IMG/VR virus record: IMGVR_UViG_2711768066_000004
Coordinates: 1-24,518 of that record
Source: a virus
Taxonomy: Duplodnaviria; Heunggongvirae; Uroviricota; Caudoviricetes
Reading direction: 5' to 3' (one strand)
DNA length: 24,518 bases
Both the position numbers and the translations under genes were made by a program. Positions within the stretch are counted from its first letter, which is position 1; the number at the start of each line of letters is the position of its first letter. Positions 4,133 through 24,518 of this stretch are shown here, one piece after another. A model generated the notes under the pieces. That model was given only the letters and a program-made list of their open reading frames with translations. It had not been told where the DNA came from and did not search any database.

Positions 4133-5373
4133 TGTTCTTTTCGGGATTATTTCAACGAAAAAGTGACGCACCGGTGACCACGCCAGCAGAGCTGGCGGAT
4201 GCTATCGGGTTGTCCTACGACACCTATACCGGAAAGCAGATCAGCAGCCAGCGGGCCATGCGACTGACGGCGGTTTTTTCCTGTGTCAGGGTGCTGGCGG
4301 AGTCGGTCGGGATGTTGCCCTGCAACCTGTATCACCTGAACGGCAGCCTGAAGCAGAGAGCCACTGGCGAACGTCTGCATAAGCTGATCTCCACGCATCC
4401 CAATGGCTATATGACGCCGCAGGAGTTCTGGGAGCTGGTGGTCACCTGTCTGTGCCTGCGGGGAAACTTTTACGCCTACAAAGTGAAAGCATTTGGCGAA
4501 GTGGCTGAACTGCTGCCCGTCGATCCCGGCTGTGTGGTACCGAAGCTTAACAGTAGCTGGGAGCCGGTCTATCAGGTCACATTCCCGGATGGCTCCACGG
4601 ATGTACTGAGCCAGGAGGATATCTGGCATGTGCGCACGCTGACGCTGGACGGACTGGTGGGGCTGAATCCCATCGCCTATGCCCGCGAGGCAATATCGCT
4701 GGCGGCAGCGACCGAAGAGCACGGGGCCAGACTGTTCAGCAATGGCGCGGTGACGTCGGGTGTGTTGCGTACAGAGCAGACGCTGTCAGATCAGGCTTAT
4801 GAGCGCCTGAAGAAAGATTTTGAGGAGCGTCACACCGGGCTTGGCAATGCTCACCGCCCGATGATCCTTGAGATGGGGCTGGACTGGAAGTCGATGGCGC
4901 TGAACGCCGAGGACAGCCAGTTCCTGGAAACCCGCAGGTTTCAGCTTGAAGAAATCTGTCGTCTGTTCCGGGTGCCGTTGCACATGGTGCAGAACACCGA
5001 TCGCGCCACCTTCAACAATATCGAAGAGCTGGGGCTGGGATTTATCAACTATTCACTGGTGCCGTATCTGACCCGCATCGAACAGCGGATCAACACCGGA
5101 CTGGTACGAAAAAGTAAGCAGGGCGTTTATTACGCCAAATTTAACGCCGGGGCGTTACTGCGCGGGGATATGAAGTCCCGTTTTGAAGCCTACGCCACCG
5201 GGATCAACTGGGGAATTTACTCTCCCAATGACTGCCGCGACCTGGAAGATATGAATCCGCGTCCCGGTGGTGATGTCTATCTCACACCGATGAACATGAC
5301 CACGAAACCCTCCGATGGCAGTAAAGCCGGTAAGCAGAAGGATAACGCCAATGCAGACGAAACAACGTCTTGA
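4132..5373 (+). CDS. Portal protein (HK97 family)
   Basis: 413 aa; position after terminase; sequence features typical of HK97-family portals. Probable GTG start at 4132 preceded by GGAGGT. Confidence 0.85.
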   Translation: MFFSGLFQRKSDAPVTTPAELADAIGLSYDTYTGKQISSQRAMRLTAVFSCVRVLAESVGMLPCNLYHLNGSLKQRATGERLHKLISTHPNGYMTPQEFWELVVTCLCLRGNFYAYKVKAFGEVAELLPVDPGCVVPKLNSSWEPVYQVTFPDGSTDVLSQEDIWHVRTLTLDGLVGLNPIAYAREAISLAAATEEHGARLFSNGAVTSGVLRTEQTLSDQAYERLKKDFEERHTGLGNAHRPMILEMGLDWKSMALNAEDSQFLETRRFQLEEICRLFRVPLHMVQNTDRATFNNIEELGLGFINYSLVPYLTRIEQRINTGLVRKSKQGVYYAKFNAGALLRGDMKSRFEAYATGINWGIYSPNDCRDLEDMNPRPGGDVYLTPMNMTTKPSDGSKAGKQKDNANADETTS

Positions 5374-19090: not shown

Positions 19091-20011
19091 ATGCATCGTA
19101 TAGACACGAAAACCGCGCAGAAGGATAAGTTCGGCGCGGGTAAGAACGGTTTTACCCGTGGTAACCCCCAGACCGGCACGCCTGCCACCGATCTGGATGA
19201 TGACTACTTTGACATGTTGCAGGAGGAGCTCTGCAGCGTGGTGGAGGCATCCGGTGCCAGCCTGGAGAAGGGGCGGCATGACCAGCTGCTTACCGCGCTT
19301 CGTGCGCTGCTGTTAAGTCGCAAAAATCCGTTTGGCGATATCAAATCGGACGGCACGGTGAAAACGGCTCTTCAAAACCTTGGTTTGGGAGATACAAGCG
19401 GATACGTGGGACGCCGGCTGAGTACCCGGGCTTTCGCGTCATCAGGTACGTATACCCCATCACCAGAAACAAAACGGATCAGGGTCACAATAACGGGCGG
19501 CGGTGGCGGTGGCTGCCAGGCTATATCCAGTAACGAAACGTTTTTCGGTGCTGGCGGTGGGGCCGGAGGGACAGTAATCACCATACTGACCCCGACACAG
19601 AATAGTTATCCTGTCACTATCGGCGCAGGTGGGGCCGGCGGCGTTGGTGCGACGAACGGCCTCAAGGGCGGTGATAGCTCGTTCGGATCGGTAATAGCCC
19701 CTGGTGGTGAAGGCGGCGGAAAAGTAGGAGTCACAAACACAAACGGCGGTAACGGAGGCGTACCGAATATTGGCGATATCCGCATCACTGGTGGAGATGG
19801 AGGCGACGGTCAGTCCGGGAATATCAGCGTCAGCGGTGAAGGCGGTGCATCGTACTGGGGAGGCGGTGGACGTGCAGGCGCTGGCGGTGGCGTTAGAGGC
19901 AGGGCATTTGGTTCAGGCGGAGGTGGTGCATACGATGCAGGTTATAGCGGAACCAGTATGACGGGCGGGAAAGGTGCTGATGGGGTTTGTATTATCGAGG
20001 AGTTTGCATAA
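19091..20011 (+). CDS. Tail fibre protein: constant N-terminal part (to about residue 97) fused to the currently expressed variable glycine-rich C-terminal part
   Basis: 306 aa; GGAG SD; the left crossover site lies in-frame inside the gene at the NLGLG motif; C-terminal two-thirds is Gly-rich ([21 protein letters not shown]). Confidence 0.8.
19371..19392. other. Left site-specific inversion crossover site (hix/gix-like), TTCAAAACCTTGGTTTGGGAGA
   Basis: Contains the palindrome AAACCTTGGTTT; an imperfect inverted copy is present at 21158..21180; resembles the Hin/Gin-family site consensus as recalled. Confidence 0.7.
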
Positions 20012-20421
20012 TGAATGCGTCATATGCAGTTATTGAAAATGGGATGGTTGTGAATGTCATTGTCTGGGATGGCGAGGATGAATTCACTGTGCCGGATAAT
20101 CTGCAGCTCATTAATATTTCTGATATCAGTGAGCAGCCCGGAATCGGCTGGGCGTATTCAGACGGGGTATTTACTGCGCCGCTCCCTCCGGAACGTTCTC
20201 ATGATGAACTGGTAGCTGACGCTGAACAGAAAAAACAGTCGTTGATAGACGCAGCAATGGTCAATATCAGCGTGATTCAGTTAAAGCTGCAGGCCGGGCG
20301 GAAGCTGACGCAGGCAGAAACCACCCGACTTAACGCCGTGCTGGATTACATTGACGCGGTGACGGCAACAGATACCAGCACTGCGCCGGATGTCATCTGG
20401 CCTGAACTGCCGGAGGCGTAG
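20011..20421 (+). CDS. Tail fibre assembly protein (currently expressed orientation)
   Basis: 136 aa; TAATG stop/start overlap with the fibre gene; GAGGAG SD; C-terminus (TSTAPDVIWPELPEA) resembles that of the convergent paralogue. Confidence 0.75.
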   Translation: MNASYAVIENGMVVNVIVWDGEDEFTVPDNLQLINISDISEQPGIGWAYSDGVFTAPLPPERSHDELVADAEQKKQSLIDAAMVNISVIQLKLQAGRKLTQAETTRLNAVLDYIDAVTATDTSTAPDVIWPELPEA

Positions 20422-20836
20422 GCCATTCAATATCTGGAGCACTGGAGGTATCAACCAGTTCCAGTGCGTCCAGATAATCCAGCCACAAATTATATTGCAC
20501 CAGTTCCTCACCTTTCAGACGACCAATTGATGCTTTACCTGGCCATTGTTTACTGTTGATGTATTCGTTGGCCTGATTAATCAATTGCTGCTTTTTAGTT
20601 TCGGCTGATGCAATTTGTTCTTCACGTGTTGGTGGAGGAATATCTACCCATGCAGGCAGTCCATCTTCTCCGACACATCTGTATTTTCCTTCTGGTGGTG
20701 TATCATAGAAATATTCCCTGAAAATTACTTCGTCTATATCAACACCTTTTTCTTCAGGCCACTCACCTTTTTCAACATAAAGAGACTTAAGTTCGTAAGG
20801 ATATGCCAGGTTGTTTACGTACAGATATTTCATCAT
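20393..20836 (-). CDS. Tail fibre assembly protein, alternative copy (expressed after inversion)
   Basis: 147 aa; convergent with and overlapping the other assembly gene by 29 bp; TAATG coupling to the silent fibre cassette. Confidence 0.7.
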   Translation of the reverse strand: MMKYLYVNNLAYPYELKSLYVEKGEWPEEKGVDIDEVIFREYFYDTPPEGKYRCVGEDGLPAWVDIPPPTREEQIASAETKKQQLINQANEYINSKQWPGKASIGRLKGEELVQYNLWLDYLDALELVDTSSAPDIEWPTPPAVQAR

Positions 20837-21210
20837 TACCAGCCCTTAGCGAAAAACGCACCACCTTCAAGACCATAATTGCAGTGAGCTATGAAGCCGG
20901 TAGTGCTCCAGTTGGTCGCCCCCCACATATTCCCACCCCCGAAACCACCATCGCACACAATTACAATGCCCGGTGTCTGTGTAAATGGAATCGGGAATGA
21001 AACATTGGCGGATACAGGCCCGTGTTCACTAGGAAAACTAATTCGTCCCCACTGTTCAATTGAACCATCTGGCATTTTTCGCCAGCCTGAACCTGATGCA
21101 TATGATGACATATCAGGTATCTGATTTTCCCCAGTTCCCACATTCCGTTTTGCCGCTTCTCCCAAACCAACGTTTATGAAGATGCAGAAATAACGAGCAA
21201 ATGGCATCAT
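20836..21210 (-). CDS. Silent alternative tail-fibre C-terminal cassette (promoterless in this orientation; only the part from about 21170 down to 20836 would be fused to the constant region after inversion)
   Basis: Minus-strand frame reads ...[20 protein letters not shown]... across the right crossover site, paralleling ...[13 protein letters not shown]... in the expressed gene; the Met at 21210 lies beyond the site and is probably not a native start. Confidence 0.6.
21158..21180. other. Right site-specific inversion crossover site (hix/gix-like), inverted copy
   Basis: TCTCCCAAACCAACGTTTATGAA is the reverse complement of the left site with about 2 mismatches; located about 57 bp upstream of the invertase start. 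Confidence 0.7.
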
Positions 21211-21236
21211 TCCTGCTTTTGTCAGGGGGAGCTACC

Positions 21237-21365
21237 ATGCTTATTGGCTATGTACGCGTATCAACAAATGACCAGAACACCGATCTACAACGTAATGCGT
21301 TGAGCTGTGCAGGATGCGAGCTGATTTTTGAAGACAAGATAAGCGGTACAAAGTCCGAAACCTAG
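21237..21365 (+). pseudogene. pin: Truncated Pin/Gin/Hin-family serine DNA invertase (first 41 codons only)
   Basis: MLIGYVRVSTNDQNTDLQRNALSCAGCELIFEDKISGTKSE matches the N-terminus of Pin/Gin invertases as recalled, then diverges (T, stop) exactly where composition switches to low GC. A full-length invertase is about 185-190 aa. Confidence 0.85.
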
Positions 21366-21460: not shown

Positions 21461-23410
21461 TTAATCGTGTTTTGGCCATACTTTCAATGCAATTTCCCCC
21501 AACTTTTTACCCCGCTCCAGGATTTCATCCTCATCCCATTTATCCTTAACTATAAGTGGAATGTTCAGTCGTAGATTGGTGTGGACGATGAGAGCATCAC
21601 GTTTTTTCAGAAATACAGCATTCTGAACAGAACGGTTTACGCTAAGGTTAAGCAAAGTTAGATTTCCCAACGTAGCTATCGCTTGTTGCCGTTTCCTTAC
21701 CAGTAGCTGTTCAGGGGTAAGATCGGTTCCAGACAGAACAATTTGGTTCAATACCGTAGCATCTGAATTTGTCACCATATGACCATTTTCGAGAGGCCAA
21801 CAGGAATACCAACTTTGAGGCATAAGATGATCGATATCGAGGTTAGAAAGATTTGGAACATCAGGCTTCTCTGTCTTCACTTGGCGACAAAGTTCTCTTT
21901 CAAGTTCCGTTAACATTGAGCGCATTTTCGGTGCGTCGAGCCTGCCAGGATAAAGTGGAGCATTGATGCAAGCGTTGAGAAATTCTGAGTCCCCAGGCCA
22001 ACGTGAGGCTTCGCCATTTAAGCTATTGAGGATATTACGTAACTCAACACTGGAAATTTCCGTTTTAGACAAGTGCCGCAATACATTCATAAATACATTG
22101 TTGTAATTCTTTGGCGTCAGGCCACATACGGCTCTTCGTACTACGTAGGAGACAAGATCATTATACATGGCTGCTTTCTCATCATCGGCGATGTTAGCTA
22201 TCGAAATGAACAAAGCAAGCGGATAAAGTGTCGTCACATCATAGGCTGCGATGCGATGTCCAAAGTGTGAGATGGGGGTTGTGCCAAAACCACCAACCAA
22301 TTCTTTATATTGTGATGCATATTGTTTGAGGCGCTTTACTTGCAGATCTGCTCGTTGTGAAGGCAAGTCCTTACTTACATAATCACGATACTCATTGTAA
22401 AGACGAGACAGATCGATTTCACGTTGCCTTTCTGATTGCAATGTCGCATGCACTAGCCACTCCATGCGTGGTTTATTAATACGACCACGACGTTGTCTTT
22501 CTGACCAGTACGTATCTTCAAAGATCTTCCACTCATTCTCATATAATTCAACAGCATTAATATTTTCATGTTCAGCGCACATAAAAATATAATTGCGAAT
22601 AAGATCTGTGGCATGAAGTTCCGCACCTCTGCCATTTAATGTTTCAAAAATTATTTGAGCGTCATCTTCAGCCTCGAGAAATATGCTTACTAGTTTCAGA
22701 TCCGTCAAGACAGCCTCAATTAATGCTACAGCATTTTCTCGTGGTGAGTGATTTTCTATTTTAATCCACTTTATAAAGGCTTCAGTAAAAAAACATAATG
22801 CTTCTAGTGATGGCGGGTGATTAAAATGCTTACGCAACGTACCATGCTGCGTGAAACTATCAGAGAATACATTCCGGATATCGTCAATATTTTCAACATT
22901 AAAACTTTGAATAAAATGAGTTTGATCCCGAAAAGTTGGCCACAGTTTGAAGCGCTCTACTTCTTTATTTCGCATTGTGTCTTCGTTTGAGTTTTTCAGG
23001 CAAGACGAAATGAGAGGCCCTAAGTTGGAAAGATCTGTCGCACGTAATGCTAATCGGATGGATGCCAGAACATATTGAAGAGTGGTCAATCGTTGCTGAC
23101 CATCAATAATATGTATGGAATCTACACCTAATAATCCTTTTTTTGGTTGAGGTTCCAGTACCACTGCACCAAGGAAATGGGGAGTTGGTTTTGTACCCGA
23201 GAGCCGGGATTGTGCTTTCTCTAGGATATCCTCCAGTAGAGCTGACCATTGGTTTCGCTGAGTCCATACATAGGCACGTTGATAGAATGGAACGCAGTAT
23301 TGTCGGCGGTCTTGAAAAAGTTGTTGGACAGTTAGCGTCTCGGATTTCATGGTATACCTGTAAGCGACATTGTACAAAAGTGAGGAGTTAATCTGATTTA
23401 GAACAATCAT
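21461..23410 (-). CDS. DUF262/DUF1524 fusion protein, GmrSD-family type IV (modification-dependent) restriction endonuclease-like
   Basis: N-terminal DUF262 hallmarks (VPFYQRAYVWTQRNQW and IIDGQQRLTTLQ); C-terminal DUF1524/His-Me-finger hallmarks (LDIDHLMPQSW, GNLTLLNLSVNRSVQN). Low GC. Likely true start is Met21 at 23350 (AGG 6 nt upstream and a TACAAT -10-like hexamer further up) rather than 23410. Confidence 0.8.
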   Translation of the reverse strand: MIVLNQINSSLLYNVAYRYTMKSETLTVQQLFQDRRQYCVPFYQRAYVWTQRNQWSALLEDILEKAQSRLSGTKPTPHFLGAVVLEPQPKKGLLGVDSIHIIDGQQRLTTLQYVLASIRLALRATDLSNLGPLISSCLKNSNEDTMRNKEVERFKLWPTFRDQTHFIQSFNVENIDDIRNVFSDSFTQHGTLRKHFNHPPSLEALCFFTEAFIKWIKIENHSPRENAVALIEAVLTDLKLVSIFLEAEDDAQIIFETLNGRGAELHATDLIRNYIFMCAEHENINAVELYENEWKIFEDTYWSERQRRGRINKPRMEWLVHATLQSERQREIDLSRLYNEYRDYVSKDLPSQRADLQVKRLKQYASQYKELVGGFGTTPISHFGHRIAAYDVTTLYPLALFISIANIADDEKAAMYNDLVSYVVRRAVCGLTPKNYNNVFMNVLRHLSKTEISSVELRNILNSLNGEASRWPGDSEFLNACINAPLYPGRLDAPKMRSMLTELERELCRQVKTEKPDVPNLSNLDIDHLMPQSWYSCWPLENGHMVTNSDATVLNQIVLSGTDLTPEQLLVRKRQQAIATLGNLTLLNLSVNRSVQNAVFLKKRDALIVHTNLRLNIPLIVKDKWDEDEILERGKKLGEIALKVWPKHD

Positions 23411-24223
23411 TTTATGTTGCTATGATACAACGTATTTGTTACCGGTTAAGTAAAAAACGCGTCTGAACGCTGACGTTTTAGGGCTTTACTAGTTATTCTT
23501 TCTTATCTCTTCATCATCCCATCGGCATCCTGTCGAGGGGTTGTTGACTTGTTGTTATTTATTTTGTTTAGGCGCTGTTTAATTATTATTGATGGGACTG
23601 GTGGTGAGAGGTGATTGAAACCGCAGACAGGTCGTATGCAAGACGTGCTGCGGTTGGCTGGTAAATGTTAGATAGTGCGAGTATTGAATGATTTCTAGCC
23701 GTTATTGATTTTACGTATTTTTGTATGAGAGGATTTGCATCTCCTGCCACCGACCCTCCATGACTTTACGCCACTGTCTCTAGGGCTGCTATGTGCCAGG
23801 AGCAGCCATTGCTAAGTCCATCCTGTATTGTGCAGGTCAGCTCGTTTTTAAAGAGTCCGGCCACCATCTTACTGGTACAGACACCATATACTTTGTGACG
23901 GTCAGGCTACATATGCACAACTCAACTTATTCATCTATTTTTTGCTTTAGCATGTCAGTGTTGCTTTCTCGTCGGCGGGTGAGCGGTGACCTGACCTGTC
24001 GATAAAGGAACGTAGCACGTTTTATGCAACACCCGCATGCGGCAGAAAATTATTGCCGAACGTTTACCCCTGTCAACAAGCTTTACTTTCTGAGGCGCGC
24101 CAGCCCGCGAGGAAAACAATCTGAACATCAAACAATTAATGACACAAGAAATACGATTAAAGATTTTTTTGTGCATGCCGATAGTGCTTTTTTAAAAGGA
24201 GAAATCTATGTCTGTCACAATTC

Positions 24224-24518
24224 GGTGATGCTGCCAACTTACTGATTTAGTGTATGATGGTGTTTTTGAGGTGCTCCAGTGGCTTCTGTTTCTATCAGCT
24301 GTCCCTCCTGTTCAGCTACTGACGGGGTGGTGCGTAACGGCAAAAGCACTGCCGGACATCAGCGCTATCTCTGCTCTCACTGCCGTAAAACATGGCAACT
24401 GCAGTTCACTTACACCGCTTCTCAACCCGGTACGCACCAGAAAATCATTGATATGGCCATGAATGGCGTCGGATGCCGGGCAACCGCCCGCATTATGGGC
24501 GTTGGCCTCAACACGATT
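24224..24518 (+). mobile_element. IS1: IS1 insertion sequence, partial copy (left terminal 295 bp; remainder outside the window)
   Basis: Begins with the IS1 terminal inverted repeat GGTGATGCTGCCAACTTACTGAT at 24224; exact inverted duplicate of the left-edge copy. Confidence 0.93.
24279..24518 (+). CDS. insA: IS1 InsA, N-terminal 80 codons (partial, runs off the window); GTG start
   Basis: Same translation as the left-edge copy; the track ORF 24250..24462 is an overlapping alternative frame. Confidence 0.85.

Follow-up and report, generated by a model that had tools for sequence, protein, structure and literature searches.

Introduction

The flxA gene of Escherichia coli K-12 is cited as a well-characterised case of a FliA-dependent promoter that serves a non-flagellar gene (PMC4183435). 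Its RNA signal in K-12 was 280 in the wild type versus 2 in a fliA deletion (PMC4183435). In prophage Qin of K-12 the local gene order is relB (leftward), ydfV (rightward) and flxA (rightward). We know of no phenotype for flxA. A fixed IS1 end with deletions on the other side is classical behaviour of this insertion sequence.

Another described system that bears on the present locus is DinR, an Hfq-dependent small RNA cut from the 3' end of dinI in Klebsiella pneumoniae; its authors list the release of such fragments by other dinI mRNAs as unknown (PMC10907235). In phage lambda, the segment 24150-24365 of the b region has no function recorded in the records or papers searched.

Here, we describe a stretch of DNA that shares features with each of these systems. 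The window, meaning the whole stretch analysed, is 24,518 nt of a tailed-phage record (IMG/VR IMGVR_UViG_2711768066_000004, positions 1 to 24,518), and the part of interest is 23411-24223, near its right end. A sequence-only reading had described this part as about 800 bp of low-G+C DNA without a convincing open reading frame (ORF), ending in a gene start disrupted by IS1.

Results and Discussion

Make-up of the stretch

The G+C content of 23411-24223 is 43.2%, compared with 52.6% for the whole window, and the ORF listing with translations holds no intact gene there, in agreement with the sequence-only reading. Four ORFs were listed (Table 1). Searches of Pfam and NCBIfam returned no matches for the three of 70-73 aa, and both 73-aa ORFs overlap the conserved ydfV-flxA intergenic region. 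Rfam covariance models gave no match at E<=1 in 23000-24518.

Comparison with E. coli genomes and phage records leaves us with little doubt that the stretch forms the right-hand terminus of a prophage of E. coli, past the tail-fibre and invertase module, and that it is a mosaic of five pieces ending in a flxA start cut by IS1. From left to right, the pieces are the region upstream of a GmrSD-family gene, a decayed dinI-like 3' UTR with its hairpin, filler joined to a 5'-truncated ydfV, the ydfV-flxA intergenic region, and nucleotides 1-16 of flxA. About half of the stretch, namely the ydfV remnant and the degraded dinI-like 3' UTR/hairpin, is relic DNA and not regulatory DNA.

Table 1. Features at the right-hand end of the window. 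Positions are those of the window.
Feature	Position	Strand	Remarks
GmrSD-gene upstream region	23351-23617	-	Travels with the DUF262/DUF1524 gene; PGAP start at 23350
54-aa ORF	23586-23750	-	
Degraded ~100-nt dinI-type 3' UTR/hairpin element	23618-23716	-	Hairpin at 23621-23653
Mosaic filler	23717-23792	+	Common to the lambda b region and EC6622-type prophages
ydfV remnant (70-aa ORF)	23793-24005	+	Translation equals the last 70 residues and stop of K-12 YdfV
73-aa ORF	23955-24176	-	
ydfV-flxA intergenic region and flxA leader	24006-24207	+	Sigma-28 promoter; Shine-Dalgarno sequence AAGGAG
73-aa ORF	24024-24245	+	
Sigma-28 promoter match	24158-24184	+	-35 at 24158-24165; -10 at 24177-24184
Shine-Dalgarno sequence of flxA	24196-24201	+	AAGGAG
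Start codon of flxA	24208-24210	+	ATG
flxA, first 16 nt	24208-24223	+	Codons 1-5 (MSVTI) and one base
IS1 left end	24224-24518	+	Left inverted repeat and 5' part of insA; insA GTG start at 24270

Identity of the interrupted gene

The sequence-only reading had noticed an ATG whose frame, MSVTI, is cut by IS1 after five codons. This was confirmed: the frame reads ATG TCT GTC ACA ATT C, five codons plus one nucleotide, and is followed directly by GGTGATGCTGCC... of the IS1 left inverted repeat. Because IS1 supplies a TGA at 24226-24228, the leftover ORF is MSVTIR*. The ribosome-binding site had been placed 7 nt from the start codon; the spacing is in fact 6 nt (aaatct) between AAGGAG and the ATG.

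Of 5,426 complete E. coli genomes searched by megablast with 23350-24223 as query, 1,855 gave matches, 18 of them over the whole query. Four genomes match the full query without a difference (100% identity) and carry the annotation 'ydfV / DUF262', while the next group, without IS1, is 99.0-99.8% identical and annotated 'ydfV / flxA / DUF262'. In strain 127, which is free of IS1 at this site, the same ATG opens a 333-nt gene annotated flxA, and flxA likewise opens at this ATG in EC6622 and in the K-12 prophage Qin. In a four-way alignment, the window is identical to the IS1-free copies up to 24223 (24006-24223 being invariant among the four copies save for one K-12 substitution) and diverges exactly at 24224, where the nucleotides of the IS1-free relatives run on as MSVTIQGNTSTVISN... 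to a 110-aa FlxA. Their translation, MSVTIQGNTSTVISNNSAPEG... (110 aa, starting MSVTIQGNTS), matches the Pfam family FlxA (PF14282) at E=2e-14 over the full protein. The window itself keeps five flxA codons, all identical to those of the relatives. The check proposed with the sequence-only reading, recovery of the interrupted gene from IS1-free relatives, supports that reading: in strain 127, EC6622 and K-12 Qin the frame continues for 110 codons, and by sequence comparison the interrupted gene is flxA.

The FliA (sigma-28) promoter of flxA

The window was searched with the sigma-28 consensus TAAAGTTT-N11-GCCGATAA, allowing up to two mismatches and using shuffled sequences as control. A single match was found, TAAAGATTTTTTTGTGCATGCCGATAG, which agrees with the consensus at 14 of 16 positions (0 expected in shuffles) and consists of a -35 element, TAAAGATT, and a -10 element, GCCGATAG. 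These 27 bp are, base for base, the validated K-12 flxA FliA promoter; the FliA ChIP-seq motif reported for flxA in K-12 extends them by a single T, the base that follows (Fitzgerald et al., 2014; PMC4183435). The suggestion that the region might hold the promoter and 5' leader of a lost downstream gene was therefore correct. Judged from the sequence, the sigma-28 promoter, which is of class 3, a predicted leader of ~16 nt (a length taken from the usual distance between start site and -10 element) and the ribosome-binding site are intact in the window. In a motile cell, FliA-RNA polymerase would be expected still to fire from here, starting at about 24192. The resulting transcript would be translated into MSVTIR* alone and would then enter IS1 in the sense direction of insA.

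The ydfV-flxA intergenic region also carries a near-consensus sigma-70-like site, TTGACA-16-AATAAT (24076-24049, minus strand, 11/12 in a consensus scan), antisense to ydfV. The site is identical in K-12, where its direction would be toward relBE-hokD, and it may be connected with the overlapping ydfV/relBE transcription described in PMC12288877.

The GmrSD-family gene and its upstream region

The left border of the stretch required correction. The start of the DUF262/DUF1524 gene had been set at 23410, the first ATG of its ORF; PGAP, the annotation pipeline of NCBI, places it at 23350, and the first residue of the GmrSD_N domain is number 28 of the long ORF, so the untranslated stretch probably begins at 23351. 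Both Pfam domains, GmrSD_N and GmrSD_C, are present in the product. The ~270 bp from 23351 to ~23617 belong specifically to this gene cassette. They are ~99% identical to the DNA upstream of the same gene in three viral contigs (L068, L116 and L024), and it is plausible, as the sequence-only reading had suggested, that the GmrSD-gene promoter lies within 23351-23617. A promoter scan gave a weak sigma-70-like match there, TTAACC-16-TATCAT (23449-23422, minus strand, 9/12), which would be compatible with such a promoter. A weak hairpin at ~23453-23480 was considered as a terminator and rejected, its z-score being ~0.

Over 23340-23640, the window differs from strain 127 only in a run of four G at ~23538-23541 (minus-strand C). 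This run is two bases longer than in the strain 127 and viral-contig copies and lies ~190 nt upstream of where the GmrSD gene is annotated to start.

The GmrSD-family (DUF262 and DUF1524) type IV restriction-like gene itself (21461-23350/23410, minus strand) stands in place of the 3' portion of pin; in EC6622-type prophages, the slot that it holds here is filled by an intact pinE and a GIY-YIG gene. The position between invertase and flxA looks like a variable accessory or defence slot. The pin-type invertase gene beside the tail-fibre segment is a 54-codon stump (21201-21365). The tail-fibre segment left of ~21158 (~19800-21158) has one orientation in the window and strain 127 and the opposite one in ET474 and T2, with 100% identity; next to a pin stump, this means that the inversion either predates the truncation or was catalysed in trans by another Pin-family invertase.

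A conserved ~100-nt element with a degraded copy in the window

To the right of the GmrSD upstream region lies DNA of wide distribution. In a distant BLAST against phage records, 23621-23822 was 82% identical to lambda 24162-24365, a part of the b region that lies between ea31 and ea47 and carries no annotation, and ~180 further lambdoid and Stx phages matched at 80-90%. A pattern scan found at least 120 viral-contig loci with the element. Since the pattern forces 23 invariant bases, conservation inside it is by construction; the hairpin of the element lies outside the pattern. Alignment of the loci gave a core of ~100 nt with 84-92% identity, flanked on both sides by at least eight unrelated sequence families. 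Orphan copies are present in lambda at 24150-24270 (2501-2620 of locus L008) and in K-12 Qin, which has a full one at 1632469-1632571 (4470-4572 of locus L131), upstream of ynfT-ydfK-pinQ and ~190 nt in from the prophage end, and the K-12 prophage Rac has a hairpin-only copy at 1434725-1434768 (25726-25769 of locus L130).

Three parts make up the core when it is read on the minus strand: a conserved stretch of ~65 nt, a helix GGCTGG/CCAGCC, and a hairpin CCGCAGCACGT...ACGTG(N)CTGCGG. The variants CCGTGG/CCGCGG, TCGTAG/CTACGG and CAGCGGTA/TACCGCTG preserve the pairing of the hairpin. Counted on a hand-set structure, changes on both sides occur in 10 of 18 pairs (41 cells); none of 500 shuffles reached any observed measure, and controls with slid partners were far lower. 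Run on the raw MAFFT alignment, RNAalifold did not detect the hairpin, owing to indels in the loop. The strand of the element was assigned from genomic context, G-U and A-C counts being balanced and the whole core folding somewhat better on the plus strand.

That context is clear in many of the copies. In 46 of ~119, the core starts 8 nt past the stop of an 82-aa gene on the same strand, and in six more the distance is 7 nt. The gene product reads MRIEICIAKEK...ETLKDTWESADEWFVH and belongs to the DinI family (PF06183, E=1e-19). With a DinI-like gene directly upstream, the core is the 3' UTR and terminator-type hairpin of lambdoid dinI-like genes; at least four T follow the hairpin in ~45% of copies.

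Two of the viral contigs (L116 and L024) have the dinI-like gene, the core and the GmrSD gene in this order on one strand. Relative to the window, their divergence is concentrated in the hairpin, with compensatory changes, and the GmrSD upstream DNA is nearly identical. Divergence centred on the hairpin beside nearly identical DNA marks the core as a probable recombination joint. The window and the lambda b region agree in the orientation of the element relative to the tail-fibre genes and in its position upstream of a leftward accessory gene; lambda imm21 has a small annotated ORF there, the frame of which is preserved neither in the window nor in EC6622.

Two coding or leader functions were tried for the element and rejected. 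As a small protein on the minus strand (the 54-aa ORF of Table 1; compare the 63-aa ORF annotated in lambda imm21), it is contradicted by 1-nt indels that shift the frame among the window, EC6622 and lambda, and by substitutions that are mostly non-synonymous. As the 5' leader or promoter of a plus-strand gene, it would need a gene to serve, and no ORF longer than 78 aa starts after the element in any flank family. The anti-sRNAs AgvB and AsxR were also rejected as its identity; both sit at the PR' moron site and not in the b region.

The copy in the window departs from this pattern. Its hairpin (-14.9 kcal/mol) is followed by UUUC, and a terminator scan of 23200-24300 found no intrinsic terminators, the hairpin being without a U-tract. 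Having lost its U-tract, it would no longer terminate efficiently. From its sequence, we read the copy at 23618-23716 as a relic.

By analogy with DinR, the element might represent an undescribed family of prophage small RNAs derived from the 3' UTRs of SOS-linked dinI-like mRNAs of lambdoid phages, a proposal that we put forward tentatively and consider rather unlikely. The element resembles DinR in location, in that its copies most often form the 3' UTR and hairpin that follow a DinI-family gene (52 of ~119 copies, in other phages). The supplements of Tree et al. (2014) have no 'dinI' entry, and literature searches on ea47/ea31 and ynfT found nothing about the element. That the element is an active small RNA gene in the window's own strain, and so the real functional content of the 'empty' region, is a narrower claim and an improbable one. 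It draws on the conservation of the core between otherwise unrelated flanks, on the compensatory changes in the hairpin, and on the precedent of the Klebsiella small RNA (PMC10907235). However, the window copy, unlike DinR, has no dinI-family mRNA to end: upstream of it, both the dinI-like gene and the promoter of that gene are missing. Besides, 1-nt deletions set the copy apart from the consensus, and the element shows no conserved promoter of its own. The copies in lambda, two viral contigs and Qin match no Rfam family. The element has no sequence similarity to the 3' UTR of the chromosomal dinI of K-12, and its complementarity to the ftsZ start region is no better than that of shuffles. We therefore retain the relic reading for the window copy; the element in general may be a recombination joint, the source of a 3'-UTR-derived small RNA, or both.

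A 5'-truncated ydfV

The sequence-only reading had found the 70-73-aa ORFs unconvincing as genes. None matches a protein family, and the 70-aa ORF has no Shine-Dalgarno sequence, but the 70-aa ORF is what remains of an annotated K-12 gene. Direct comparison of translations showed it to be identical to the final 70 residues and stop of K-12 YdfV (101 aa), and homology to K-12 spans 23788-24223 at 99.3% identity. Codons 32-101 of ydfV are present; other DNA has taken the place of codons 1-31 with the K-12 start and of the promoter region on the relB side. The filler before the ORF (23717-23792) is ~95% identical to EC6622 and contains an in-frame TAG at 23781-23783, made by a one-base insertion relative to EC6622. 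With its start lost and an in-frame TAG upstream, the ORF is a ydfV remnant; in relatives, PGAP annotates 'protein YdfV, incomplete, missing N-terminus'.

The residues that remain are unchanged from K-12 and their frame is open from a GTG at 23793, so that a functional shortened ydfV could be imagined. We consider this very unlikely: the stop codon lies 12 nt upstream of the ORF, the start and promoter region of the gene were exchanged for unrelated DNA, PGAP calls ydfV a pseudogene in all relatives, and EC6622-type copies would need a non-canonical start codon.

Taken as a unit, the ydfV remnant and flxA start correspond to b1565-b1566 of K-12 Qin, with which the window shares the 3' two-thirds of ydfV, the intergenic region, the FliA promoter, the ribosome-binding site and flxA nucleotides 1-16. 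In contrast to Qin, where ydfV-flxA adjoins relBE-hokD, the locus in the window lies at the end of a different prophage, by tail-fibre, pin and GmrSD genes and near the paoD/ykg region of the chromosome, and does not adjoin relBE-hokD; its ydfV lacks the 5' end and its flxA is cut by IS1.

The IS1 junction and the loss of the rest of flxA in relatives

The terminal inverted repeat GGTGATGCTGCCAACTTACTGAT begins at 24224 and is followed by insA. The IS1 part of the window is 100% identical to the 768-bp IS1 annotated at the same junction in four complete genomes, and the inserted element is identified as IS1 on this basis. These genomes are MB46 (Cuba), ET474 (China), KTa005 (Japan) and T2 (China), and their annotated IS1 carries the insAB' programmed frameshift. 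Presence of the exact flxA::IS1 junction in four independent complete genomes makes a misassembly unlikely. ET474 also carries the left IS1 of the window at the same place, indicating that both insertions are real and not assembly artefacts.

Beyond IS1, the four genomes differ. MB46 continues into DNA upstream of ykgE, ET474 into an HTH gene, then an aldo/keto-reductase fragment and then rclC, and KTa005 and T2 into a fragment of yagU (DUF1440). The rest of flxA is absent at all four junction loci, BLAST finding nucleotides 1-16 only. Three different far flanks, each without the rest of flxA, point to IS1-associated deletions. They also account for the target-site duplication being invisible in the relatives, where the far flank is unrelated DNA after deletion. 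In the likely course of events, IS1 would have inserted after flxA nucleotide 16 and the DNA on its far side would then have been deleted to differing extents in every sequenced relative with this junction. The constant junction between the left inverted repeat and flxA nucleotide 16, with a variable far side that lacks the rest of the target gene, corresponds to known IS1-adjacent deletion; here, adjacent deletion and recombination between IS1 copies are both candidates. The deletions are seen in relatives, whereas the sequence of the window ends inside IS1, and its source genome may hold a simple insertion with the remainder of flxA intact.

The window has IS1 at its other end as well: 1-296 and 24224-24518 are the same 295-296 nt of the IS1 left end, as inverted twins. 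A prophage segment of 23.9 kb is therefore bracketed by two IS1, with the left repeats facing inward. The left IS1 truncates a hypothetical gene beside HNH endonuclease and terminase genes. The length of chromosome lost (yagU, ykgE and rclC areas) varies among the strains with the flxA::IS1 junction, and in MB46 and KTa005 the GmrSD gene is interrupted by additional insertions of IS1 or ISVsa5. Erosion of the locus by insertion sequences is active.

An adaptive IS1-flxA fusion, in which the FliA promoter couples insA/insAB' transcription to flagellar expression or in which loss of flxA was selected, could be proposed from the intact sigma-28 promoter 40 nt upstream of the IS1 left end in the direction of insA and from the persistence of the junction in strains from three countries, but is highly improbable, given that common descent of one lineage explains this persistence, that flxA has no phenotype known to us, and that read-through from outside tends to lower IS1 transposition, not to raise it. 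We conclude that the stretch is ordinary insertion-sequence damage to a known gene with a known promoter.

Conclusions

An apparently empty stretch of 0.8 kb resolves into known parts, and the lost gene can be named as flxA, a FliA-controlled prophage gene of unknown function. In the annotation of the record, flxA and ydfV should be entered as pseudogenes and the sigma-28 promoter as a feature. The locus illustrates clearly how an IS1 junction can remain constant while related strains lose differing amounts of the adjoining chromosome.

Of the features in this region, the conserved dinI 3'-UTR element alone offers a lead worth pursuing, and it could merit a study of its own. It marks joints at which lambdoid phages swap accessory (defence) genes. 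Should the element also prove to be a source of small RNAs, orphan copies would persist in lambda (ea31-ea47), Qin, Rac and at accessory-gene junctions such as that in the window, and the strong conservation of the element amid unrelated flanks would then have two causes, its function and its use as a recombination joint.
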